A DNA stretch of 37,432 bases from a virus (Duplodnaviria; Heunggongvirae; Uroviricota; Caudoviricetes), in IMG/VR virus record IMGVR_UViG_2724679140_000013; one strand, 5' to 3'. The first letter of the stretch is position 1. Each line of letters begins with the position of its first letter. The translations under genes were made by a program, and so were the position numbers. Shown here in pieces: positions 4,862-36,732 of the stretch. Under the pieces are notes generated by a model. The model did not search any database. It was given only the letters and a program-made list of their open reading frames with translations, and was not told the origin of the DNA.

Positions 4862-5065
4862 ATGAACAAAAAGACCTGGTTTCGCGCATACATGTGGGCG
4901 CTGGTATGCGTCCTCGTTTCTCTCATTCTGTATGCAGGACTACTCCCCCGAATGATTTCATCAGACAGCTCCTTCTTGGTATTGCTGGGCATTTTCATTG
5001 CCATGCTGTACCCGGCAGGCGTTGTTCGCCTTTTCAGTAAGTACATCAAGGAAATCAAACAATGA
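4862..5065 (+). CDS. Small two-TM membrane protein coupled to the SPFH gene
   Basis: 67 aa; two hydrophobic helices (WALVCVLVSLILYAGLL, FLVLLGIFIAMLYPAGVV); ATGA overlap with the next gene. Confidence 0.6.
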   Translation: MNKKTWFRAYMWALVCVLVSLILYAGLLPRMISSDSSFLVLLGIFIAMLYPAGVVRLFSKYIKEIKQ

Positions 5066-5892
5066 AGAAACTCAAACTCTTTCAGATTATCCCGCTTTTT
5101 GCCGCCATCCTGCTGGTTGGTTGCGATCGCGTTGAGCCAGGTAATGTGGGCATCAAAGTCAACAAACTGGGCGACGACAAAGGCGTCGGTGAAGTGGTTG
5201 GCGTTGGCCGCTACTGGACAGGCTGGAATACAGAGGTTTACATCTTCCCGACCTTCAAACAAATGAAGACCTACGATGAGCCGTTCAGCTTTCAGATGAG
5301 TGACGGCACAACCATCGGCTATCACATCGGTGTGGCCTACAAGGTTGATCCATCCAAAGTTACTACAGTGTTTCAGACCTACCGCAAAGGCGTGGACGAC
5401 ATTACCGACACTGACCTGCGCCAGAAGATCGCCGATGCACTCAACCGACTGGCCAGCAAAATGACCACCGATAAATTCATCGACGGTGGCAAGTCTGAAC
5501 TGCTGGATTCAGCACTTAAAGATATTCAGGAAGAGATGACCCCCATCGGTATTCAGGTCATGAGCCTCTCTTATGTCGGTAAACCGGAATATCCGCCAAC
5601 CGTTATCGACAGCATTAACGCCAAAGTCACGGCAAACCAGAAAACCCTGCAACGCGAACAGGAAGTCAAGCAACGCGAAGCAGAAGCCAACATGTTGCGC
5701 GCAGAAGCTGCCGGACAGGCTGATGCCATTCGCACAAAAGCCCAGGCTGAAGCCGACGCCATTCGTTTACGCGGTGAAGCTCTGCGCCAGAATCCCGGCG
5801 TTATGGAGCTGGAAGCAATCAACAAATGGAACGGCACGCTGCCGCAATACATGACCAGCAATACCGCTGTTCCGTTTGTTCCGGTGAAGTAA
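5062..5892 (+). CDS. SPFH/band-7 (prohibitin/flotillin-like) lipoprotein
   Basis: 276 aa; lipobox LLVGC; SPFH core followed by an Ala/Glu/Arg-rich coiled coil (QREQEVKQREAEANMLRAEAAGQADAIRTKAQAEADAIRLRGEA). Confidence 0.85.
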   Translation: MKKLKLFQIIPLFAAILLVGCDRVEPGNVGIKVNKLGDDKGVGEVVGVGRYWTGWNTEVYIFPTFKQMKTYDEPFSFQMSDGTTIGYHIGVAYKVDPSKVTTVFQTYRKGVDDITDTDLRQKIADALNRLASKMTTDKFIDGGKSELLDSALKDIQEEMTPIGIQVMSLSYVGKPEYPPTVIDSINAKVTANQKTLQREQEVKQREAEANMLRAEAAGQADAIRTKAQAEADAIRLRGEALRQNPGVMELEAINKWNGTLPQYMTSNTAVPFVPVK

Positions 5893-6931: not shown

Positions 6932-9754
6932 ATGACGGCAGAGTACATCAGGGACTGGCAACAGCCGCGCCACGCAGTGGGACGTGAAGGAACGGGGATC
7001 CCCGTTCCTGAATCCGCGCTTTCCTCCTGGCTGGATGCCTACCGGGCAGAGAACGAGCGCCGCCAGGAAATGGCTGATGCGGCGTTCTCCGCCACGCCGC
7101 TGGGCAACCTGATTAATAAAAGCCTGGATGCACAGGAAAAACAGGACAAAACCATCACACTGGCAGGAGACGCCAGAAAACAGGTACGCGGTGCGGTGGA
7201 TGAAGCCATGGCCTCGCTGCGCCTGCTGCCGTCCTATCTGCGCGATCCGCTTATTCGCCACCTCTCCTTCCTGCGCAAAAAACAGGAAGCCGATCGCCGG
7301 AAAGGCAAAAAGAGCTGGCAGGCTGAACGCTACGCGCGCGGAACCCTGCGCAAAATATTCGAACGTCTGGACCGCACCGACCACCGCTGGCTGACACCGG
7401 GTTATCGCTCCCTTGCCGGACGCGAACGCCTGGATGATTTGCTTTACCTGCCGCAGCTCAACAAGCACCAGATACAGACGCTGGCCACCATGACGGCGGC
7501 GATGTTCAGCAGCACCTTCGAAAAACTCTGCGATGGCTTTGGCGCGACTGATGGCGAGCTGACCATGGAGGTAACGCTGAAGGCGTATCAGATGCTGGCC
7601 CGCATGGCGTTACACCTGCACGCCATGCCTCCGCATTATGACGCACTGACAACAGACAAAGACCGGAGGAACGAACCGGACACGGAGTTGCTGCCGGGCG
7701 CAATCCTTCGCCTGACCTGTGCGGAATGGTGGAAACGCAAACTGTGGCTGTTACGTTGCGAGTGGCGGGAAGAACAACTCCGCGCCGCCTGTCTGGTTTC
7801 CAGAAAAACATCGCCCTATCTGAGCCAGGACGCGTTAAGCGAGTTTCGAGCACAGCGCGAGAAAACACGCGATTTCCTGAAAAGTTTCATGCTGGAAAAC
7901 GAAGACGGGTTCACGATTGATCTCGAGACGGTGTATTACGCGGGAGTAAGTAATCCGGTTCATCGTAAGGCAGAAATGATGGCCACCATGAAGGGGCTGG
8001 AACTTCTGGCCGAAGCCCGTGGCGACAAAGCGGTGTTTCTGACTGTCACCTGCCCGTCAAAATACCACGCCACAACAGAGAACGGTCATCCGAATCCCAA
8101 ATGGAACGGGGCCACCATGCGCGACTCCAGCGATTACCTGGTTAACACGTTTTTTGCGGCGGTCCGCAAGAAACTGAACCGCGACGGCCTGCGCTGGTAT
8201 GGCATCCGCACGGTGGAGCCTCACCATGACGGCACCGTGCACTGGCATATGATGGTCTTTGCTCATCCGGAAGAAATCGACACCATTGTGTCCCACACCC
8301 GCGATATTGCCATTCAGGAAGATCGTCACGAGCTGGGTGATGATATTACCCCACGCTTTAAGGCGGAGTACGTCGACGGCTCAAAAGGCACACCGACCAG
8401 CTACATCGCCACCTACATCGGGAAAAACCTGGACAGCCGTGCCGTGGATGGCATCGACCCGAAAACGGGCAAGCCACGCGTTGACCACGAAACCGGAAAA
8501 TCAATGGCCGAGAGCGTGGAACGCGCCATCGGCTGGGCGCGCCTTCACCGGGTCCGCCAGTTCCAGTTCTTTGGTATCCCCTCCCGTCAGGTGTGGCGTG
8601 AACTGCGCCGCCTTGCCAGCCAGATGGCTCGCAACCCGGAAGGACCGCAACGGCTGAAGGATGACGCAATGGACGCGGTTCTTGCTTCCGCTGATGCCGG
8701 ATGTTTTGCCACCTACATAGAGAAACAGGGCGGCGTACTTGTTCCACGCAAGGACTACCTGATTCGCACCGCCTACGACCTCGCAGATGAGCTGAACGAT
8801 TACGGTGAACAGAGCGTACAGATTTACGGGATCTGGTCACCGCTCATCGGGGAGTCTTCCCGCGTATGCACGCATCCGGACAACTGGAAGCTGGTAAGAC
8901 GCAAACCGGAAGCGGAAGACAGCGCCCGCGAAAATGGTTTTGACCTTCAGGGCGGCCCTGCCGCCCCTTGGACTCGTGGCAATAACTGTCCCCGTATACA
9001 GGAAACGGGCAACAACGGGACAGAACAGCCGGAAGAACGGCCAGCACCGTGGCCGCAGCTTCCTGACGGCGTTGACGTGAATGAATGGATGCGCTCACTG
9101 AAACGGCACGAACACCGGGCGCTGATGCGTTCGCTGCGTGACAAACAGGCAAAAAACAGCAGTGATGAAATGCAGAACTGGACACAGAGCCGCAAACAGC
9201 CACAGCCTTTGCCTGATAACCACGAGTTACTCGCTAAAGAATGGCGGGAGTCTGCTGAATCTCTCGGCCTGCATATCGGTGAACAGCAGATGCAGCACCT
9301 GTTACGGGGCGGCAGTCTGTACGTTGACGGCAGCATCATTGCACCGCAGGGATTTGAAATTGTACGCAAACCGGATACCCGCCCGGACAGCCGAATCACG
9401 CAGCTCTGGCAGCGCCTGAGCCGTAACCACGGCGTAAGCAGCACGGAGATCCGCCATAACCCGGTCGCCAGCTATCTGGAACAGCTGGGGGCATCAGACC
9501 CCGAAGCCGCCGCACGCCTGGCATCCACACTTCAGCAAGACCAGAACACCATGAAAACACCCGTTACCGTGCTTTCTGACATGCTGCGCGCCATCCGCGA
9601 CGCAGAGCACGCACAGAGAATCAGTGAAACCACTGAACGCGCCCGCCGCAAAGCAGACCTGCTGCGGGGTGGCCTGACCAGTGGAAACAAAAAACAGACA
9701 GAAACGGGATTCACAAATCCCGTAAATGAGCAAAAAACGCGCCGCGATATATGA
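6932..9754 (+). CDS. A: Rolling-circle replication initiation endonuclease (P2 gpA family), with a long C-terminal extension
   Basis: 940 aa; HUH-type motif HHDGTVHWHMMVF and paired-tyrosine motif SYIATYIGKN as in P2 A. Confidence 0.9.
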   Translation: MTAEYIRDWQQPRHAVGREGTGIPVPESALSSWLDAYRAENERRQEMADAAFSATPLGNLINKSLDAQEKQDKTITLAGDARKQVRGAVDEAMASLRLLPSYLRDPLIRHLSFLRKKQEADRRKGKKSWQAERYARGTLRKIFERLDRTDHRWLTPGYRSLAGRERLDDLLYLPQLNKHQIQTLATMTAAMFSSTFEKLCDGFGATDGELTMEVTLKAYQMLARMALHLHAMPPHYDALTTDKDRRNEPDTELLPGAILRLTCAEWWKRKLWLLRCEWREEQLRAACLVSRKTSPYLSQDALSEFRAQREKTRDFLKSFMLENEDGFTIDLETVYYAGVSNPVHRKAEMMATMKGLELLAEARGDKAVFLTVTCPSKYHATTENGHPNPKWNGATMRDSSDYLVNTFFAAVRKKLNRDGLRWYGIRTVEPHHDGTVHWHMMVFAHPEEIDTIVSHTRDIAIQEDRHELGDDITPRFKAEYVDGSKGTPTSYIATYIGKNLDSRAVDGIDPKTGKPRVDHETGKSMAESVERAIGWARLHRVRQFQFFGIPSRQVWRELRRLASQMARNPEGPQRLKDDAMDAVLASADAGCFATYIEKQGGVLVPRKDYLIRTAYDLADELNDYGEQSVQIYGIWSPLIGESSRVCTHPDNWKLVRRKPEAEDSARENGFDLQGGPAAPWTRGNNCPRIQETGNNGTEQPEERPAPWPQLPDGVDVNEWMRSLKRHEHRALMRSLRDKQAKNSSDEMQNWTQSRKQPQPLPDNHELLAKEWRESAESLGLHIGEQQMQHLLRGGSLYVDGSIIAPQGFEIVRKPDTRPDSRITQLWQRLSRNHGVSSTEIRHNPVASYLEQLGASDPEAAARLASTLQQDQNTMKTPVTVLSDMLRAIRDAEHAQRISETTERARRKADLLRGGLTSGNKKQTETGFTNPVNEQKTRRDI

Positions 9755-9804
9755 AGCGCGCATAAAACAGGCAAAAACGGGATTTCAGAATCCCGTAAAC
9801 GATT
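9688..9804. repeat. Two copies of a ~42-bp repeat, each containing a perfect 20-bp palindrome; candidate parC centromere/operator
   Basis: ACGGGATT-CACA-AATCCCGT (9704-9723, inside the 3' end of A) and ACGGGATT-TCAG-AATCCCGT (9777-9796); 73 bp centre to centre; flanks AAAACAGRCARAA and AAAYGA also repeated; immediately upstream of parM. Confidence 0.5.
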
Positions 9805-9830
9805 AATTAATCAACATAAGGAAAAGCGAC

Positions 9831-10790
9831 ATGAAAATTTGTATCGATGACGGCTCCACCAACATCAAGCTGGCATGGACTGAGAACGGCGAACGCCGCA
9901 ACGCCATCAGCCCGAACAGCTTCAAGTCGGAATGGTCTGCGCCGTTCGGTGGAACGCAGCCCGCAAACTACATGCTTGATGGCGTGCGCTATGGTTTTGA
10001 TCCGGTCAGCGATCGCTTTGTCCAGACGACCGACACGCAATACCAGTACAGCGATGTGAATGTCATTGCCATTCATCACGCGCTGGTCAAATCAGGCATC
10101 ACACCACAGGAAGTGGATGTGGTTGTCACCCTGCCACTGAGCGAATATTTCGACACCAACGCACAGCCGGACATGGCCAACATCAACCGCAAAAAAGCAA
10201 ACGTCATGCGCCCGGTGGCGTACCAGAACGGAAAAGCATTCACTATCCGTAACGTACGGGTTATGCCTGAATCCATTCCGGCTGGTTTTAAAGCACTGGC
10301 TGACATGAGTCCGTTTGAATCCCTGCTGATTGTGGATTTAGGCGGAACCACGCTGGATGTGGCAAAGGTTCAGGGACAACTGGCAGGTATCAGCCAGGTG
10401 TTTTGCGATCCACACGTAGGCGTTTCCCTGATGGCCGATGCCGTACTGTCGGTGATGGCCACTAACGGTATGCGTACCAGTCACCACATCGCCAATACCA
10501 TTATCGAACATCGCCATGATGAAGCCTGGCTGCGCCAGCACATCCACAATGACGCGCATTACGCCAGCCTGATGGCGGTTATTCGTGAAAAGGAAGAAAC
10601 ACTGAAACAACGCGTGATCCGCGCGCTGGCGGGTTTTTCGGGTTACGGGCGGGTGATGGTTGTCGGTGGAGGGGCGGAGATTGTGGCACCCGCTATCCGC
10701 GAAGCCTGCGGAGTTAATGCGACTTTCATCGCGGACGGGGTGCCACAGTTTGCTCTGGTTAACGGGCTGTACGCAATGGACAAGGAGTAA
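9831..10790 (+). CDS. parM: Actin-like plasmid segregation ATPase ParM/StbA
   Basis: 319 aa; collinear with plasmid R1 ParM as I recall it (MKICIDDGSTNIKLAW, ISPNSFKSEW, YQYSDVNVIAIHHAL, VMPESIPAG, LIVDLGGTTLDV, VMVVGGGAE). Confidence 0.9.
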   Translation: MKICIDDGSTNIKLAWTENGERRNAISPNSFKSEWSAPFGGTQPANYMLDGVRYGFDPVSDRFVQTTDTQYQYSDVNVIAIHHALVKSGITPQEVDVVVTLPLSEYFDTNAQPDMANINRKKANVMRPVAYQNGKAFTIRNVRVMPESIPAGFKALADMSPFESLLIVDLGGTTLDVAKVQGQLAGISQVFCDPHVGVSLMADAVLSVMATNGMRTSHHIANTIIEHRHDEAWLRQHIHNDAHYASLMAVIREKEETLKQRVIRALAGFSGYGRVMVVGGGAEIVAPAIREACGVNATFIADGVPQFALVNGLYAMDKE

Positions 10791-10794
10791 ACCA

Positions 10795-11109
10795 ATGACG
10801 ACACCAACCAGACGGATAAGTTTCTATCTGAAGCCAGCTGCAGTCAAGAGTGAACGGGAAGCGTGTAATTATCTCGACAGCCTGCCAGCCTCCGAACGCA
10901 GCCGCGCGCAACGCGCGGCATTTCTGGCTGGACTGGCACTCATTAAAAACGATCCTGCCTTTGCTTACTGGCTGGCTGAATGGTCAGAGGGGGAAAATAT
11001 GCCTGCCAACAATCACATATGGGGCTGGCATAACAGCGAGCCTGTTGGTTGCAAAAATCAGAATATAAGTCAAATAAAAAAGAATATTCAGGAATTTTTT
11101 CCTGAATGA
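10795..11109 (+). CDS. parR: ParR-like centromere-binding adaptor (RHH)
   Basis: 104 aa; SD AGGAG; RRISFYLKP...LDSLPASERSRAQRAAFLAGLALIKNDP parallels the R1 ParR N-terminal domain; directly downstream of parM. Confidence 0.75.
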   Translation: MTTPTRRISFYLKPAAVKSEREACNYLDSLPASERSRAQRAAFLAGLALIKNDPAFAYWLAEWSEGENMPANNHIWGWHNSEPVGCKNQNISQIKKNIQEFFPE

Positions 11110-11152: not shown

Positions 11153-11302
11153 TCAGCTTCGCACTAGAAACGCCCAAGCTTTCCAGCCATACTCATGAGC
11201 ATCCAGCTTTCGACCAGAATCACCACGAACCTTACGGTATCGGCAAAACTGCCAACGAAATCCTTTCGGAGCCGGTTTTTTTACAATTGATTTCAAAGCC
11301 AT
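11153..11302 (-). CDS. Possible 49-aa basic mini-protein
   Basis: AAGGAGG 9 nt upstream of the ATG; MALKSIVKKPAPKGFRWQFCRYRKVRGDSGRKLDAHEYGWKAWAFLVRS; bracketed by terminators; below the ORF-track cutoff. Confidence 0.35.
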   Translation of the reverse strand: MALKSIVKKPAPKGFRWQFCRYRKVRGDSGRKLDAHEYGWKAWAFLVRS

Positions 11303-11430: not shown

Positions 11431-11462
11431 AAGCCCCTGACGGTTGGCCCCGTCAGGGGCTT
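11431..11462 (-). terminator. Intrinsic terminator of the toxin-antitoxin operon
   Basis: Minus strand reads AAGCCCCTGACGGGGCCAACCGTCAGGGGCTT followed by TTTCAA; begins 6 nt after the antitoxin stop. Confidence 0.65.
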
Positions 11463-11467
11463 AATAT

Positions 11468-11785
11468 TTATGCAACCTGACAGGAATGTTCTGCCGTCGC
11501 AGTAACAACCCCACCGGAATACCCAAACTTAAAATCCCACCCCAGGATGTTTAGCATGATAAACAGTCGATCAATGGTATGATTATCTAACTTACCATTA
11601 ATGATTTCGCTTACTCTTGGTTGGGTTGTTTCCAGCAATTCAGCAGCTTCTCGCTGGGTAAGACCGCGCTCCTGAATCATTTTTCGGATAATAACCATTA
11701 ATTGGGCCCGGATGTGTTTATCACTAGCTTCATTTACAGAGCTACTTGATGACGCATAAGGGTTTTTGACTACGACGAATTCCAT
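11468..11785 (-). CDS. XRE-family HTH antitoxin (HigA-like)
   Basis: 105 aa; GLTQREAAELLETTQPRVSEIINGKLDNHTIDRLFIMLNILG is the typical HigA/XRE antitoxin pattern; downstream of the toxin. Confidence 0.8.
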   Translation of the reverse strand: MEFVVVKNPYASSSSSVNEASDKHIRAQLMVIIRKMIQERGLTQREAAELLETTQPRVSEIINGKLDNHTIDRLFIMLNILGWDFKFGYSGGVVTATAEHSCQVA

Positions 11786-11855
11786 AACTCTCCAGCCTTA
11801 ATCAGCGATGTTGCTGACATTGATTATGTTATATCAGATTTGAGATACCTGCAAG

Positions 11856-12257
11856 CTATCTTAAGCCATTTTTACGACGATACTCCACTAATTGTTTGTA
11901 TCTTGCGGCAGCTGTCTCATATTCTTTTTTTGACACACCATTTGTCTTTTTCTTAAATGTATGAAGTATGTAAACAGACTCCGCAAATTTCGCAACGTAA
12001 ATCATACGATAAGAATCACTACTCTTGATGGTTAATTGCATTGCGTAGCGACCAATCGTTTCCCGCATTGATTTTTTTTGAGCAGGTGGAACCCCCAAGG
12101 CATCATCACCATCCACTGGAAAATCGAAACTGTCGAAAGAATGAGGACAATCGCTCTGCAGTGCAACAAGCTCAAAATTTATCCTTTCTCGAACAGCTTC
12201 AGGATAACTATCAATTTGTTTCTGAATTTTATCATTCCAATATGTGATGTCTTTCAC
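11856..12257 (-). CDS. Gp49/RelE-HigB-superfamily toxin
   Basis: 133 aa, GTG start with SD GAGAGG; YRMIYVAKFAESVYILHTFKKKTNGVSKKEYETAAARYKQL matches the Gp49-like RelE/ParE toxin C-terminal pattern; toxin-first order as in higBA. Confidence 0.7.
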   Translation of the reverse strand: MKDITYWNDKIQKQIDSYPEAVRERINFELVALQSDCPHSFDSFDFPVDGDDALGVPPAQKKSMRETIGRYAMQLTIKSSDSYRMIYVAKFAESVYILHTFKKKTNGVSKKEYETAAARYKQLVEYRRKNGLR

Positions 12258-12288: not shown

Positions 12289-12296
12289 ATTATACA
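12289..12296 (-). promoter_or_regulatory. Extended -10 element (TGTATAAT) for the toxin-antitoxin operon
   Basis: Minus strand reads TGTATAAT about 30 nt upstream of the toxin GTG. Confidence 0.45.
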
Positions 12297-12348
12297 AAGA
12301 TCTTTTTTTCGCTTAAATACATCCACTGAACGTTGATTTTAATGCAAG

Positions 12349-12370
12349 ATTGTGCACAAATTTGCACAAT
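12349..12370. promoter_or_regulatory. Operator-like half-site array
   Basis: ATTGTGC-N8-GCACAAT; contains the 10-bp palindrome TTGTGCACAA; GTGCACAAA recurs at 12434-12442. Confidence 0.4.
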
Positions 12371-12394
12371 TTTTTTGAACGACTTTTTGCCCTT

Positions 12395-12470
12395 CCGGCC
12401 CGCGTGGCGGCTGGATCCGCCAAGGATCCGTGCGTGCACAAAAAAACGCGTTTTTTCTGCGCGCAGGTGA
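12395..12470. other. Candidate cos (cohesive end / terminase recognition) core
   Basis: Position matches P2 cos (between the hotspot and Q); GCGTGGCGG matches the core of the 186-type cohesive end GGCGTGGCGGGGAAAGCAT as I recall it; GGATCCG repeated 11 bp apart; GGCGG/CCGCC dyad; palindrome AAAAAACGCGTTTTTT (12441-12456). Confidence 0.3.
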
Positions 12471-12741
12471 CGGGGGAACAGCCCGCGTTTCAGGGGGTAA
12501 ATAGCATTCCCTGAACGATGTCGCAGCGACACAACAGAATGGCTGTATCGCTCACGCTGAGCGTGAAAAATACGTAAGGGGTTCTGATTTGATGGGGTGA
12601 AAGGTAAGGCCGTCAAATCGCAATGAGACGGCGAGAACATGCTGTCAGCTCGATGGGATTGCGTAAGAGTCTGGCCATCGATGATGGCGATAAGTTGGAA
12701 GACGTCGTGAAATTATCTGATTGATACGGGAGCTGGAGAGT

Positions 12742-12766: not shown

Positions 12767-12867
12767 GCGAAGCAGCAGACAAGCGAAGCGCGTCAGTGAT
12801 GCGGCACCTTGCCGACCACACTCCATAAGTGCAAAATACGAGCAAAGAAATCAATGGAGGCTGTTTT

Positions 12868-13392
12868 ATGGTCATTAATTACAAGCAGTTACGAGAAAAA
12901 CGAGAGCAGGTAAAGGAAAGTTTTCGCCGCAATGAAGATCTGACCCCGCTTGTACACCTTGCCCAGGGAATTGTTGATGCTTATGAAATCTCTCTGGAGC
13001 TGCCATCACAGACATGGACGGATAGCGACGGTAATCGCCAGCATTACGTTTCATGCGGACTGGAAACAACTGAAGGGTTTCGCAGAATGCCTTTATCTCA
13101 GATTCCTGCCGCTACCCCCAAAGCAAGGGGCGGCAATGATGAGCGAAAACTGATTTTTAGCATTGAGACAGTGGTTGACGACACACCTGGCGAAGTCGCG
13201 TTCGTGCATACTCCTCTTTCGATCGCAATGTATAACGATGAAATACAGGTTCGCGTTAATAATAATATCGTGCCACTTAAAGAAGGTAATTCACCCTACA
13301 CCACCGTTTGTGAAGCCATTCAATATTACGTTCTCTCTGAAATTGATAATCTCAAGCCTGACGGCACCCAGAAAATGGTTCAACTCTGGTAA
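12868..13392 (+). CDS. Hypothetical 174-aa orphan between the probable cos and the portal gene
   Basis: SD GGAGG 7 nt upstream of ATG 12868 (preferred to the 12829 ORF start); own terminator; no motif I recognise. Confidence 0.6.
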   Translation: MVINYKQLREKREQVKESFRRNEDLTPLVHLAQGIVDAYEISLELPSQTWTDSDGNRQHYVSCGLETTEGFRRMPLSQIPAATPKARGGNDERKLIFSIETVVDDTPGEVAFVHTPLSIAMYNDEIQVRVNNNIVPLKEGNSPYTTVCEAIQYYVLSEIDNLKPDGTQKMVQLW

Positions 13393-13397
13393 TAAGG

Positions 13398-13423
13398 ACA
13401 GCCCCATCACGGGGCTGTTTTTT
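13398..13423. terminator. Bidirectional intrinsic terminator shared by the 174-aa gene and Q
   Basis: ACAGCCCC-ATCAC-GGGGCTGT followed by T6; overlaps the last codons of Q. Confidence 0.7.
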
Positions 13424-14453
13424 CATCAAGAAGTGCATAAGAGTTAAAACGGATCACCTCTTCGCCAAGCCAGTCATTGATGTGCTTCATGGCCTCCATG
13501 ACGGGCATCAGCTCGTTAATTGCGTAAACCCGCGCGGCCTTCTCCACATCACCAAACGCACTTTTTTCACCCGGCATCGCCCCCATCAGTTGCGGCGGAA
13601 CGCGGTGCGCAGCCAGCACATCATCACGGGATGCCGCCTTAACATTCATGAACTCATCCTTTGCGGTGATCTGCTGGAACGGCAAAATTTGCACCCCCTC
13701 TTTGCCCCCGTTGGGCGCATGAATGAGCACGTTTTTAAACGCACCACCACCACGTGCCCCCTGTAGCGTTTCTTTCAGGGAGTCCATGCTTTCGCGGTTT
13801 ACCTGCGCTGCACCGATGTAGATGATGCACCCGGCGTGGGATCCGTTGTCGTAATACAGTTTTCTGAACATGTCCGCCGAATGAGACAGGCTGGCCGAGA
13901 GTAATGCGCCAAGATATTCCGGCATGCCGTAAATTTCCTGGTTAATGTCAGGATTCATCAGGTGGCACACTTTACCAGGGCGAAACTGAAACGCATCCTT
14001 GCCATCCTGCACATACCACCATGATTCAAGATCGCTTCCGCGTCGCATGTATTTCGCCAGGGCGTGCCGTAATTTAAGCGGTTCGCCGAGCATATTGCTC
14101 CGAAGCTCAAGGAATGCGTTACCGAACACAAACCAGTCCAGCGCCAGCGCCGAGAAATCCTGCCGGGAAAGCAGCGGGTGCGGAATGTAGCAACCGAGCA
14201 ATACATTACGCTTAAAGTAAAGCGCAGACTGATGCCAGGACGTTTGCCGGGCAGCTCTTGCCAGACCGTACCAGTCCACCGGGGTTTCATACCACCGCCC
14301 GTTATCAGCACAGTACATGTTGTCCAGCAGGTCATGCCCGGTCAGGCGATAAGGACCATCAAATGTGAATGCACTGAGCGATGATTCTTTCCTGAGCGCA
14401 TCAGCGAGATCAATGCGTGAACTCATGCGCACTTTTTTATTTTTTCTGCTCAT
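13407..14453 (-). CDS. Q: Portal protein (P2 gpQ)
   Basis: 348 aa; size, position and orientation as P2 Q; overlaps the P stop. Confidence 0.9.
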   Translation of the reverse strand: MSRKNKKVRMSSRIDLADALRKESSLSAFTFDGPYRLTGHDLLDNMYCADNGRWYETPVDWYGLARAARQTSWHQSALYFKRNVLLGCYIPHPLLSRQDFSALALDWFVFGNAFLELRSNMLGEPLKLRHALAKYMRRGSDLESWWYVQDGKDAFQFRPGKVCHLMNPDINQEIYGMPEYLGALLSASLSHSADMFRKLYYDNGSHAGCIIYIGAAQVNRESMDSLKETLQGARGGGAFKNVLIHAPNGGKEGVQILPFQQITAKDEFMNVKAASRDDVLAAHRVPPQLMGAMPGEKSAFGDVEKAARVYAINELMPVMEAMKHINDWLGEEVIRFNSYALLDEKTAP

Positions 14454-16204
14454 CAGAACTCCATAACCGTGAAACGCTCGTTTTCTCCTTCGCCGCCAAT
14501 CGGTTCGTTAATGACAGCAAGCATGGTTGCCCACGCAAGGTCGCCGTGGCTGATCCCCCTCGCGCGGTCCGTTTCGTAAGTGATAAAGCCGCCCGGTGTT
14601 TTCACCTTACGCACGGCGTTAAAGGCCGCGACCAGCTCGCGTTCGGCGCGATCGTATTCCCACCGCCCGGCACGCATTATTTGCAGCATTTTCAGTACCA
14701 GCGACCGTTTTGATGACAGCGTGAAGGTGTACGGAATAGCAGCAGGGAAAAACCGTTTCACTATCTGATAAACAGCCTCCCCGTTCCCGCCCGTCACATC
14801 AATGCCGATGTGTTCCACGTTGTAGCGACACGTGAACTCTTCAATGACTCTGGCCTGTTCTTCAAACTCCAGCCCCTGAACGCGTCGCGTCTCCACCGTT
14901 CGAAAACGGCCTCCAGGAACAGCCGGAGGAACCACTACGGACACAGCGCCGCTGTCGCCGTTTCCACTGCTGCCGTTTGCGTCATACCCAATCCATACCG
15001 GACGATTCCCCATCGGGCGGGGAGCAAAAGGTTTCCAGTCTTTCCAGTCGTCGTATCCGTCAACACCGCAGCCAATCAGTATATTCAGGTTAAATGCCGA
15101 TTCCCCTTCGCGGACAAACTCACACATATAGAGATTGCGGAACTCGTCTTCGGTGTTTTCATCACGAATTTCGTCAATATCGGTGTGTTTCCAGCCGTGA
15201 TTAACCACATCTTCCAGCGTGACAATTTGCCGCCACGTCCGGTCAGGGCAGATAAGCCCGTTATGCAGCGTTTTCCAGTCCACAGAAAAACGCTGACGTT
15301 TATGCGTGGCCTTTTTCTCGTTCCAGCGGTCGCCGTTCCAGTAGGCGTATGCCTCGTGCGTTTCGGTGGATGGCGTGGAGAAGTAGGTGCGCCGCAGTCC
15401 GCTGAGGGTTGCCATAGCGCCAGCCACCTTGCGCAGTTCAGCAAAGCGACTGACCCAGAAAAATTCATCAAAATAAAAATTGCCCGTGTAGGACTGTGCC
15501 GTCGCAGCAGAAGTACCAAGAAAATGCAGCTCTGCGCCGTTGGAGAGGATGATTTTATCGCCCCCTTTCAGCTCCACATCAACTTCAGATGCAGCCTTCT
15601 GAATAATGCTTTTAAACTGGAACGCCTGACGACGCGACGCAGACAAAAAAATCTGGTTACGCTGGTAAGGTTGCGCCACATCGTCACGCAGCGCCATCAG
15701 CAGTGCTTCCTGTGCAAAATACCAGGTCGCCCCAATCTGTCGGGATTTCAGGATCATCCTGTTACGTATCCCGGCTTCACTGCAAAGGGTCAGGGAGTCA
15801 AACCAGCCCCGCTGATGCCACTCCAGCCTGCTGATGATTTTTTCCCGCAGTGCGGCAATCTGCTCCGGCGTGAAATGATTTTTAAGTTTTTTCGCCCGGC
15901 CTTTCTTTCCTGTGGCCGTCACATCCGGCTGGCCATCATGCAGTTTTTTAAGCTGCCGGGTCAGCAGGTCTATTTCCTTAAAGTCACCGCCTGTTTTATT
16001 CTGTTTTTCAGTAAGCTGGATGAGGCGCGCATCGATGGACTGCGTGACACGCTGCACGGGTGGCGTTTCATCCCACTGGTCGCGTTTTTTCCACGCATAA
16101 ATCGTGTTCGGGTTTATTCCCATCAGACGTGATATTTCTGCGGGCGGATAACCCTGCCAGTAAAGTTGCCGCGCACGCTGGCGCACAAAAGCGTCCTGAA
16201 TCAT
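14453..16204 (-). CDS. P: Terminase large subunit (P2 gpP)
   Basis: 583 aa; N-terminal HTH-like region, ATPase and nuclease regions; Q-P pair divergent from O. Confidence 0.9.
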   Translation of the reverse strand: MIQDAFVRQRARQLYWQGYPPAEISRLMGINPNTIYAWKKRDQWDETPPVQRVTQSIDARLIQLTEKQNKTGGDFKEIDLLTRQLKKLHDGQPDVTATGKKGRAKKLKNHFTPEQIAALREKIISRLEWHQRGWFDSLTLCSEAGIRNRMILKSRQIGATWYFAQEALLMALRDDVAQPYQRNQIFLSASRRQAFQFKSIIQKAASEVDVELKGGDKIILSNGAELHFLGTSAATAQSYTGNFYFDEFFWVSRFAELRKVAGAMATLSGLRRTYFSTPSTETHEAYAYWNGDRWNEKKATHKRQRFSVDWKTLHNGLICPDRTWRQIVTLEDVVNHGWKHTDIDEIRDENTEDEFRNLYMCEFVREGESAFNLNILIGCGVDGYDDWKDWKPFAPRPMGNRPVWIGYDANGSSGNGDSGAVSVVVPPAVPGGRFRTVETRRVQGLEFEEQARVIEEFTCRYNVEHIGIDVTGGNGEAVYQIVKRFFPAAIPYTFTLSSKRSLVLKMLQIMRAGRWEYDRAERELVAAFNAVRKVKTPGGFITYETDRARGISHGDLAWATMLAVINEPIGGEGENERFTVMEF

Positions 16205-32322: not shown

Positions 32323-32479
32323 AGCTTCAGCCCCTTGTATCCGTTAAATGATTAGGCAACAATCATCACCCACCACGCGCGTAATCTCACCCCTGCGCCA
32401 TTCTCCCGCCACGGCGACAACAAAAAGCAGTAACCCCCTCCGCACGCACATGCGACCATGCCGCACAGGGAGGGAACAG

Positions 32480-33589
32480 ATGACCGACACCACCATGCAA
32501 TTGCTCAGTCAGGGCACAGACCCTGTAAAAATGCCGGATTTTGATATTCTCGCGGAGGGTAAAACGCTGTCAGGCGTGGCAGAGCGCCTGATGAGCCTGT
32601 CACTGACCGACAACCGTGGATTTGAGGCGGACCAGCTCACCATCACGCTGGATGATGCGGATGGTCAGTTGCAGCTACCGCCACGGGGCGCGCGCCTGAC
32701 GGTTCTCATTGGCTGGAAAGGAGAACCGCTGACAGAAAAAGGCACTTACATTGTTGATGAAATCGCTCACGAAGGACCGCCGGACAGGCTGACTGTTTCA
32801 GCCAGAAGCGCAGATTTTCGGGATGAATTTAACGTTAAACGTGAGGTGTCCTGGCATGATGTGACCGTTGAGCGTGTGGTATCCGCCATCGCTCATCGGT
32901 ACGGTCTGAAACCACAAATCAGCGAAATACTGATGGATATTGAAATCGACCACGCCGACCAGACCGAAGAAAGCGACATGTCCTTCCTTACGCGCATGGC
33001 GGAAATGCTGGGCGCAATCACCACGGTAAAAAGCGGTAATCTGTTATTCATCATGCCTGGCGGTGGCGTGAACGCACAGGGCCAGCCGTTGCCCTCATTC
33101 GCCATCACACGCAGCAGTGGCGATCGCCATCAGTTCCGCATTGCTGACCGCGAAGCGTATACGGGGGTACGCGCTTACTGGCTTGATCTTAATTACGGGA
33201 AAAAGAAAAAAGTCAGCGTGAAACGCCGCAAACCGCCAAAACCCAAAAAGGAGAAAAGCAGCAGCCGTGAAGGTGATTATATGGAAGGCGCGGAAGGCAA
33301 TGTGTTTGTGTTACGCAAGACTTATCAGAACGAGCAGGCAGCAAGACGCGCAGCGGCGGCGAAGTGGCAGCAGCTACAACGCGGAGCCGCATCATTCTCC
33401 ATCACGCTGGCACGTGGACGAGCAGAACTCTACCCCGAAATGCATGGCACGGTAACAGGATTTAAAAGCGAGATTGATAATCAGGACTGGATTATTGCAA
33501 AAGCCGAGCACACCATTGATAACAGTGGTTTTACCACACAGCTTGAGCTTGAAGCAAAAATCCCGGAATGGATAGCAGAAACAGAGTGA
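32480..33589 (+). CDS. D: Late control/tail protein D (P2 gpD family)
   Basis: Start at MTDTTMQ (SD GGGAGGGA) preferred to the 32348 ORF start; size and position before ogr. Confidence 0.85.
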   Translation: MTDTTMQLLSQGTDPVKMPDFDILAEGKTLSGVAERLMSLSLTDNRGFEADQLTITLDDADGQLQLPPRGARLTVLIGWKGEPLTEKGTYIVDEIAHEGPPDRLTVSARSADFRDEFNVKREVSWHDVTVERVVSAIAHRYGLKPQISEILMDIEIDHADQTEESDMSFLTRMAEMLGAITTVKSGNLLFIMPGGGVNAQGQPLPSFAITRSSGDRHQFRIADREAYTGVRAYWLDLNYGKKKKVSVKRRKPPKPKKEKSSSREGDYMEGAEGNVFVLRKTYQNEQAARRAAAAKWQQLQRGAASFSITLARGRAELYPEMHGTVTGFKSEIDNQDWIIAKAEHTIDNSGFTTQLELEAKIPEWIAETE

Positions 33590-33715: not shown

Positions 33716-34474
33716 ATGTTCAGTTTATTTTCGTTAACTGCCGGAGCAAATGTGCGCTGGCATGATTTACCTGGTAAAGGTATTCCTGTTGTTTTTATTC
33801 ATGGGCTTGGCTGTTCCTCTTCTTATGAATATCCACGGGTTGTTGCAGATCCTGCATTTGGTGGACAACGAGCGATATTGATAGATCTCCCTGGATATGG
33901 ATTCAGTGATAAGCCTAAAGGATTCGATTACAGCATATCCCATCAAGCTAAAGTTGTTATTGAAGTAGTAGAAACCTTAAATCTCTCACAGTTCCATATT
34001 TATGGTCACAGTATGGGGGGAAGTATTGCGATTGAAGTGGCCAGACAACTACATGAGAGAACAAGAAAGCTTGTGGTTTCTGAGCCTAATTTTCACTCTG
34101 GTGGAGGTACCTATAGCCGTAAGATAATAGAGAAACCAGAAGCAGAGTTTATTTCGCATATATATAATGAATTACTGGAGTGTGAAACATCCCCATGGAA
34201 AGGTGAACTCCAGAATGCAGCCCCATGGGCAATATGGCGAGGAGCCAAAAGTCTGGTTGATGGAACCACTCCATCATGGAGAGATATATTCCTTAATCTG
34301 CCCTGTTCACGTACACTAATTTTTGGCGAACAATCATTGCCAGACAATGATTTCCAGCAAATAAAAGAATCTGGAATATCTGTTGCAATAGTGCCAAACG
34401 CTGGACACTCCATGTCATGGGAAAATCCATCAGCACTGGCCTCAATTTTACATACAGAATTTTATAGAAAGTAA
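33716..34474 (+). CDS. Alpha/beta-fold hydrolase (serine hydrolase), AT-rich moron
   Basis: 252 aa; oxyanion FIHGLG, nucleophile elbow GHSMGG, C-terminal catalytic His in NAGHSM. Confidence 0.8.
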   Translation: MFSLFSLTAGANVRWHDLPGKGIPVVFIHGLGCSSSYEYPRVVADPAFGGQRAILIDLPGYGFSDKPKGFDYSISHQAKVVIEVVETLNLSQFHIYGHSMGGSIAIEVARQLHERTRKLVVSEPNFHSGGGTYSRKIIEKPEAEFISHIYNELLECETSPWKGELQNAAPWAIWRGAKSLVDGTTPSWRDIFLNLPCSRTLIFGEQSLPDNDFQQIKESGISVAIVPNAGHSMSWENPSALASILHTEFYRK

Positions 34475-34827: not shown

Positions 34828-35088
34828 ATGTTTCGTTGTCCGCTTTGTGGCGCATCTGCCCGTATCCGCACCAGTCGTCCGGAAAATGATTCAAACACCG
34901 TGCGGCAAAAGTATTACCAGTGTAACAACCTGGAATGCGGCGTATGCTTCTCAACACTGGAAGCTTTCCATAAATTCACATCAAAACACGCCTCCGGCGT
35001 TCACTCTTCAGAAGGTATCCCGTGGCATGAGCTGCCAGCTTCACACAGGGGAAACAATCAGATGAGTTTGCCTTTACCTCAGAATTAA
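34828..35088 (+). CDS. ogr: Ogr/Delta-family zinc-finger late transcription activator
   Basis: MFRCPLCG...YYQCNNLECGVCF (CxxC...CxxxxC) parallels P2 Ogr; SD GGGAGG. Confidence 0.85.
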   Translation: MFRCPLCGASARIRTSRPENDSNTVRQKYYQCNNLECGVCFSTLEAFHKFTSKHASGVHSSEGIPWHELPASHRGNNQMSLPLPQN

Positions 35089-36429: not shown

Positions 36430-36516
36430 TGGTACCCGGAGCGGGACTTGAACCCGCACAGCGCGAACGCCGAGGGATTTTAAATCCCTTGTGTCTACCG
36501 ATTCCACCATCCGGGC
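36430..36516 (-). tRNA. leuZ: tRNA-Leu (anticodon UAA)
   Basis: 87-nt reverse complement GCCCGGATGGTGGAATCGGTAGACACAAGGGATTTAAAATCCC...GGGTACCA; cloverleaf with long variable arm and encoded CCA. Confidence 0.95.
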
Positions 36517-36528
36517 TCGGGAAGAAAG

Positions 36529-36602
36529 TGGAGGCGCGTTCCGGAGTCGAACCGGACTAGACGGATTTGCAATCCGCTACATAACCGCTTTGTTAACGCG
36601 CC
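36529..36602 (-). tRNA. cysT: tRNA-Cys (anticodon GCA)
   Basis: 74-nt reverse complement GGCGCGTTAACAAAGCGGTTATGTAGCGGATTGCAAATCCGTC...CGCGCCTCCA. Confidence 0.95.
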
Positions 36603-36656
36603 AAATTCTTCAGGCCTTTCAGCCAGACATCCGCTTGACGCCGATGTCTTTTAAAC

Positions 36657-36732
<76 letters not shown>

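Follow-up and report, generated by a model that had tools for sequence, protein, structure and literature searches.

Conserved parM-parR genes beside gene A of P88-like prophages and their candidate role on replicating phage DNA

The 37,432-nucleotide viral sequence IMGVR_UViG_2724679140_000013 (hereafter the window, meaning the whole stretch of DNA analysed) is, by sequence comparison, a P88-like (Xuanwuvirus) prophage of the P2 family, and it carries a complete pair of type II (ParM/StbA family) partition genes, parM and parR. Purifying selection on this cassette is clear and strong. We read it, with some hesitation, as a functional module of the ParMRC type that moves DNA, is part of the core of P88-like phages and may act on extrachromosomal phage DNA during rolling-circle replication. 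The two genes are as follows.

9831..10790, + strand: parM, actin-like segregation ATPase of 319 amino acids (Pfam, R1 ParM structures, BLASTP)
10795..11109, + strand: parR, adaptor protein of 104 amino acids (Plasmid_stab_B, PDB 2jd3, alignments, AlphaFold model)

An initial annotation, made without database searches, had placed both open reading frames (ORFs) at these positions and had called them a complete parM/parR pair; the positions hold, and Pfam, structure and BLASTP matches agree that the type II pair is complete. The larger protein is collinear with ParM of plasmid R1, as that annotation had proposed from the motifs IDDGSTNIK, DLGGTTLD and GGGAE, all of which are present and align with R1 ParM, and the two proteins are 47% identical over their full length (BLASTP). 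Both Pfam models, StbA_N (E 6.9e-82, residues 1-157) and the ParM C-terminal domain (E 1.3e-68, residues 159-316), are covered in full, and solved R1 ParM structures match residues 2-316 at E 1.6e-92. By these matches the protein is a motor of the ParM/StbA type II family, with a predicted full-length fold of the actin or Hsp70 type. Residues D6, D7 and G8 and the DLGGTTLD motif are invariant in the ParMs of the phage group, and motif conservation and purifying selection are the evidence from which polymerisation of ParM is predicted.

The parR start lies 5 nucleotides past the parM stop, with a ribosome-binding site (AAGGAG) 8 nucleotides upstream of parR. ParR matches Pfam Plasmid_stab_B (PF10784; E 9.5e-26, residues 6-67) and the structure of pB171 ParR (StbB; 2jd3, E 0.0035), and it contains the string ERSRAQRAAFLAGLAL that had been quoted when it was first identified as ParR. 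It is a small protein encoded directly downstream of parM, with a predicted N-terminal ribbon-helix-helix DNA-binding domain. An alignment of 62 variants divides it into three parts: residues 1-63, with the segment RRISFYLKP, make up a conserved DNA-binding domain at the N-terminus, residues 64-92 a hypervariable linker, and residues 93-104 (KKNIQEFFPE) a conserved C-terminal tail in which N97, I98 and P103 are invariant and F102 is nearly so; N97 and F102 are invariant in plasmid and integrative and conjugative element (ICE) ParRs as well (alignment of 9). The AlphaFold model has helices at 20-61, a low-confidence or disordered stretch at 62-87 and a helix at 88-101, and a Foldseek comparison of this small monomer with the PDB returned no meaningful match. 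As far as alignment and model go, the layout is the known ParR design of a DNA-binding domain, a flexible linker and a predicted ParM-docking helix. In plasmid R1, the C-terminus of ParR reportedly docks onto ParM.

Clustering at 90% identity yields dozens of ParR clusters versus about four of full-length ParM, and 45 distinct ParR proteins are found in 77 near-identical phages. The parR gene falls into two deep allele groups, with a synonymous divergence (dS) of about 0.75 and a ratio of nonsynonymous to synonymous divergence (dN/dS) of about 0.3 between groups and of 0 to 0.16 within a group. Residues 1-18 are conserved among six phage copies. Because the variation sits in the disordered linker, and the DNA-reading N-terminus and the predicted ParM-binding tail are conserved, the alleles probably share the same specificity. 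The linker corresponds to positions 10985-11070. Within the allele group to which the window belongs, every linker variant comes with a cargo of its own downstream, a pattern suggesting that the recombination behind cargo exchange takes place within parR.

Conservation was surveyed in IMG/VR, where a scan returned 235 relatives (figures are from the best 80), and in 5426 complete E. coli genomes, with a query that begins with the last 75 nucleotides of P88-type gene A. ParM is intact and at least 98% identical in 80 of 80 IMG/VR copies, and parR is intact in 76 of 77. The cassette is present in 1303 of the E. coli genomes, about a quarter, with up to 3 copies in some; at least 80% of the query is held by 1278 of the 1304 matching records, and 26 are without most of the cassette. 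The dN/dS of parM among six phage copies is 0.03-0.11. In the IMG/VR copies its diversity is 0.052 at third codon positions versus 0.005 at positions 1 and 2. At 69 IMG/VR loci, the first 600 base pairs (bp) downstream of parR sort into 21 clusters that are unrelated to one another. The initial annotation had treated the cassette as an occupant of a variable anti-phage hotspot, but it is not interchangeable cargo: parMR is a conserved gpA-proximal module, and variability sets in no earlier than the 3' part of parR. Since parMR is fixed and the sequences past parR vary, the cassette forms the hotspot's conserved left border in the P88-like lineage. Neither ParM nor ParR matches a PADLOC defence model, and parMR does not show the combination of variation among close relatives and resemblance to defence proteins.

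The gpA-parM-parR region is 94-97% identical at the nucleotide level to 14 phage records (including P88, 520873 and P884B11) with the same gene order, all of them in, or close to, the genus Xuanwuvirus (P88-like, Peduoviridae). In P88 and 569R5, gpA is followed by parM, parR and then differing genes up to the portal gene. Phage 503458 (NC_049341.1) has the same layout; its parM, gpA, portal and terminase genes are split by what look like frameshift sequencing errors, not real pseudogenes. A tblastn search of 50,697 phage records found relatives of ParM only in Xuanwuvirus records and in phage D6 (91 kb), whose StbA-type protein is 48% identical and is the sole other relative. We take D6 to be a P1-like phage-plasmid (a plasmid prophage), in which partition has its classical role.

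A scan of the genome collection with this single ParM gave only three near-identical loci, and more distant relatives were reached by protein search and contig look-ups. The nearest ParMs outside the E. coli cluster are 54-63% identical, and four of these were looked up, in P2-like prophages of Hafnia, Plesiomonas, Serratia and Enterobacter. In all four, parM lies between gpA and the portal gene with parR next, and the order gpA, parM, parR, cargo, portal is kept in five genera down to 54% ParM identity. ParMs at 49-50% identity sit elsewhere, in a Dickeya conjugative element and in an integrated plasmid of Mangrovibacter. In a neighbour-joining tree, which has no bootstrap support and is indicative only, the phage-context ParMs group together and are separated from those of R1, ICEs and plasmids. 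Between the Serratia and Enterobacter phages, identity is 31% in gpA, 74% in ParM and 68% in ParR; between the window and the Hafnia phage it is 33% in gpA and 62% in ParM. This discordant divergence of gpA and ParM, with the place behind gpA kept, points to selection for the arrangement and to modules exchanged among P2-like phages. A 226-kb contig labelled Vagococcus sp. WN89Y (NZ_JBQPOM010000071.1; Firmicutes) encodes a ParM with 97% identity to that of the E. coli phage and is probably an enterobacterial contamination of that assembly.

Around the two genes, the following features were found.

9688..9729: upstream repeat 1, in the last codons of gene A, with the palindrome ACGGGATT-CACA-AATCCCGT at 9704-9723; candidate ParR site
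9761..9802: upstream repeat 2, in the gpA-parM spacer, with the palindrome ACGGGATT-TCAG-AATCCCGT at 9777-9796; candidate ParR site
9803-9814, + strand: conserved TTAATTAATCAA box
9818-9825, + strand: ribosome-binding site of parM, AAGGAAAA
11115..11140: terminator-like hairpin closing parMR, AAAAGCATGGC-TTTC-GCCATGCTTTT with an A-tract and a T-tract, possibly bidirectional

The two 42-nucleotide direct repeats lie 73 bp apart and are the only notable repeats near the operon; each holds a 20-bp palindrome (8-N4-8), the second of which sits 35-54 nucleotides before the parM start. The palindrome ACGGGATT-N4-AATCCCGT occurs at just these two sites in the window, versus 0.11 expected by chance. 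Most of 78 copies retain its GGGATT and AATCCC cores, with variation in the loop and at the outer positions of the stem. Similarly placed paired GGGxxx...xxxCCC sites, 72-75 bp apart, are found in the Hafnia and Plesiomonas phage loci, which also share the box ATTAATCAA with the window despite diverged surroundings; in the Serratia and Enterobacter phages the upstream repeat is a long inverted one of a different kind. Tandem 11-bp iterons of the R1 type are absent from all phage loci inspected; they are plainly visible in a plasmid-type locus (L016), so the method is able to find them. The two palindromes are the best candidate for parC, the centromere. Palindrome variants show no link to ParR allele group, both groups sharing the same variants. 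A reading of the palindromes as RNA structures was rejected: two common variants keep G-U pairs on the plus strand, which is not significant with two, and other variants break the stem.

A pattern scan found no plus-strand terminator-like site between 9400 and 9830 (gene A to parM) and no consensus promoter above the scan threshold between gpA and parM. Since the cassette lies on the same strand as gene A with no terminator between them, it is probably co-expressed with the early replication operon. A weak promoter candidate was noticed by eye over palindrome 2 (-35 TTCAGA, -10 ATTAAT, 8/12 matches), below the scan threshold. The hairpin after parR has a predicted energy of -17.5 kcal/mol (z-score -6.8) and was missed by the pattern scan, probably because its stem runs into the T run.

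In the complete E. coli genomes the cassette occupies 1441 chromosomal places versus 2 plasmid places, and the episomal or carrier state that the initial annotation had offered as one role is disfavoured as a stable lifestyle. The carrier is an integrated prophage, not a low-copy extrachromosomal replicon. One plasmid record, pZ1323PEC0009-2 of E. coli Z1323PEC0009 (NZ_CP148288.1), is a whole P88-like genome in the form of a circle of 34,461 bp. In the sister strain Z1323HEC0067 a prophage of 100% identity is integrated in the chromosome (NZ_CP148378.1, 2658886-2683854), and the circle may therefore have arisen by excision or induction. A small Shigella 'plasmid' record was rejected as an episome, being a linear, degraded, IS1-riddled prophage fragment. 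Inspection of the plasmid-database matches was confined to such small records, the remaining matches being on records of 227 kb to 1.4 Mb. In Plesiomonas shigelloides, the parMR phage is on a phage-sized contig of 32,167 bp (WEKF01000002.1) with seemingly little else, which could mean a free circular form. Because chromosomal residence dominates, stable plasmid lysogeny is at most rare.

If the cassette is a DNA-moving module, ParR dimers would bind the two GGGATT-N4-AATCCC palindromes upstream of parM on circular phage DNA, the conserved C-terminal helix of ParR would capture the ends of ParM filaments, and ATP-driven polymerisation of ParM would push sister phage circles apart. The genes would be expressed with the early replication operon, to which a weak, ParR-controlled promoter over palindrome 2 may add. 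Since expression with that operon is likely, the module would act in the replicating extrachromosomal phase, after infection or after induction and excision, when monomeric circles would be spread and separated to the possible benefit of the phage. Long-term plasmid maintenance would not be its job. We think the positioning of replicating phage DNA, raised in the initial annotation by analogy with Corynebacterium prophage CGP3, is viable and among the likeliest roles.

Three known systems bear on this proposal. The parMRC (stbAB) system of R1 and par1 of pB171 share with the phage cassette the protein families, the gene order, a parR translationally coupled after parM and cis repeats upstream of parM; they differ in their home, a low-copy plasmid, whereas the phage cassette is on an integrating phage and has two 20-bp palindromes as its candidate centromere, with no tandem 11-bp iterons. 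The phage ParM also groups with other phage ParMs and apart from that of R1. The srpMRC module of the SXT/R391 ICEs stabilises the excised, rolling-circle-replicating form of the element, is expressed only on activation, with the programme for excision and replication, and has, upstream of the M gene, a compact centromere made of four 13-bp repeats, direct and inverted (Carraro et al., 2015; PMC4489591). Like the phage cassette, it is an actin-type module of an element with a chromosomal resting state and a rolling-circle excised form, and in these ICEs a toxin-antitoxin pair adds stability (PMC4489591). The phage proteins clearly belong to the families of R1 ParM and ParR, to which SrpM and SrpR have only a distant relationship; the host of srpMRC keeps dividing, whereas the replicative phase of a phage normally ends in lysis; and srpMRC has been tested experimentally. 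In Corynebacterium glutamicum, AlpAC/alpS of prophage CGP3 is switched on early, and efficient replication of the phage DNA depends on it; its adaptor binds its own upstream region and links circular phage DNA to actin-like filaments (Donovan et al., 2015; PMC4446434). Here, as in the window, an integrated prophage encodes an actin-like filament protein and an adaptor, but the actin-like family, the phage type and the Gram-positive host are different, and no sequence relationship was detected.

Several observations weigh against a DNA-moving module in the replicative phase. A lytic cycle that ends in lysis has no obvious need for partition, and other P2-family phages manage without ParM, given that its tblastn relatives are limited to Xuanwuvirus and D6. 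There are only two candidate ParR sites, versus many 11-bp iterons in the plasmid-type locus; palindrome 1 is degenerate in P88 and others; and the spacer shows no extra conservation over 78 copies (diversity 0.057, versus 0.052 at synonymous sites). On the minus strand, each palindrome leads into a T-rich run and scores as an intrinsic terminator, so the palindromes may not be protein-binding sites. No minus-strand gene is obviously in need of terminators there; termination would be an alternative or additional role to ParR binding. The timing of expression is taken from gene order alone, and a literature search found no functional study of the P88-like parMR cassette.

A different account, which we consider unlikely, is that the phage is a facultative plasmid prophage that persists for many generations as a low-copy plasmid, for example where the attachment site is missing or occupied. 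Such a state has been proposed (Rousset et al., 2022, PMC9122126; Pfeifer et al., 2021, PMC7969092), and the complete P88-like circle, the Plesiomonas contig and the plasmid-style toxin-antitoxin pairs that adjoin parMR here and in the Serratia phage would fit it. Its frequency speaks otherwise, with chromosomal places so dominant in the complete genomes, and the circle has its integrated twin while the other small 'plasmid' match is a linear prophage fragment; the integrase is also kept. The P2 satellite P4 can be integrated or a plasmid, which counts for the plasmid account. In P2-type phages gene A lies in a repressor-controlled early operon, and because replication depends on gene A, a repressed episome should not replicate. 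An even less probable account gives the cassette a conflict function exerted from the prophage, either centromere-based incompatibility or exclusion of related phages or plasmids, or anti-phage defence. It would suit the wealth of defence systems in the gpA-gpQ region (PMC9122126), the high polymorphism of ParR with its deep allele groups, and the multiple copies in some genomes. The absence of PADLOC matches and the listing of these genes as likely non-defence (Rousset et al., 2022; PMC9122126) argue the other way, as do the fixation of parMR beside gene A, where it is not swapped like cargo, and the concentration of ParR variation in a disordered linker, by which alleles probably do not differ in specificity. 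Exclusion of plasmids with a related centromere, suggested in the initial annotation, is unlikely for the R1 and pB171 types: ParR is too distant from pB171 ParR, and the upstream repeats too unlike the 11-bp iterons of the plasmid-type locus, for cross-reaction to be expected.

One form of conflict, which we regard as very improbable, would be a weapon between related phages, in which resident ParR and ParM seize the palindromes of an incoming P88-like genome, or pair that genome with the chromosomal copy, so that the newcomer is mispositioned or silenced. On this view, conflict would have left its mark in the pair of deep ParR allele groups and in the hypervariable linker. The evidence does not favour it. 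Least credible of all is an inert hitch-hiker, a relic of past recombination with a plasmid that has no present function. By the tblastn search, P2-family phages outside the lineage do go without the cassette, and 26 records that keep a P88-type gene A tail are missing most of it, but dN/dS is far under 1, parM is intact in every one of the 80 copies, synteny is kept between genera at 54-63% identity, and phage packaging limits are tight.

The observation of a partition cassette at this place is not new. PGAP and phage records already name the genes: most of the 14 matching phage records annotate ParM or a partition protein, and RefSeq uses 'plasmid segregation protein ParM' and 'plasmid partitioning/stability family protein' in E. 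coli genomes. In an analysis of the gpA-gpQ hotspot, a putative partition system was noted in about a quarter of the P2-like phages of E. coli and placed among the genes whose functions are probably other than defence (Rousset et al., 2022; PMC9122126), and in a screen for phage-plasmids P88 was picked out as a phage that may exist in both an episomal and an integrated state (Pfeifer et al., 2021; PMC7969092). Both papers thus remark on the same locus and genes, and the finding and the leading interpretation, a plasmid or episomal state, are already in the literature as remarks of one sentence, without analysis of selection, centromere, ParR architecture, other genera or residence. Added here are the selection on the cassette and its fixation, the same slot in other genera, the candidate centromere and the counts of chromosomal versus plasmid places.

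The integrating P2-like context described in the initial annotation is borne out by the rest of the window, in which integrase, gpA, portal, terminase and tRNA operon were located; the P2-type genes are int, repressor, gpA, portal, terminase, gpD and ogr. Those that were positioned are listed here.

1-1002, - strand: integrase
6932..9754, + strand: gene A, rolling-circle replication endonuclease of 940 amino acids (Pfam Phage_GPA, E 1.1e-131), directly upstream of the cassette
13407-16204, - strand: portal and terminase ORFs, counterparts of those annotated in P88; the portal ORF is 13407-14453 (-)
32348-33589: gpD
34828-35088: ogr

The prophage adjoins pgsA, at the right end of the window, and a tRNA operon with tRNA-Leu, tRNA-Cys and tRNA-Gly at 36430-36732. 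As the initial annotation had stated, the cassette lies between gpA and gpQ, the slot of tin and old in P2; the end of gpA is at 9754, and the portal ORF lies at 13407-14453. The cargo after parMR includes a toxin-antitoxin-like pair at 11468-12257 (-), with a Gp49/RelE-HigB-like protein (132 amino acids) encoded upstream of an HTH_37 antitoxin-like protein (104 amino acids); both have weak PADLOC matches (PDC-M64C, NsnC), and a terminator hairpin lies beside the pair at 11431-11462. The same cargo place holds HicAB in the Serratia phage and a KAP NTPase in the Enterobacter phage. Of the other cargo ORFs, that at 12829-13392 (+; 187 amino acids) has no Pfam or PADLOC match, and those at 11153-11302 (-; 49 amino acids, very basic) and 12290-12640 (-; 116 amino acids) have no PADLOC match. 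An alpha/beta-hydrolase gene at 33716-34474 (+), between tail gene D and ogr, marks a second accessory-gene site, and a 276-amino-acid SPFH/Band-7 family protein is encoded at 5062-5892 (+) in the early region, upstream of an Ash-like gene and gpA.

Hotspot surveys of P2-like phages should treat parMR in the P88-like lineage as the conserved left border of the variable region, not as cargo. The module is carried by prophages of about a quarter of complete E. coli genomes, and P88 would be a convenient phage in which to study its function. If a real plasmid state exists, many prophages counted as purely integrative would have two lifestyles. If instead the cassette organises or segregates replicating phage circles, it would be an example, tractable in E. 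coli, of an actin cytoskeleton that a phage brings with it, and the need of integrating elements for plasmid-like functions in their extrachromosomal phase, as found for SXT/R391, would extend to such phages.

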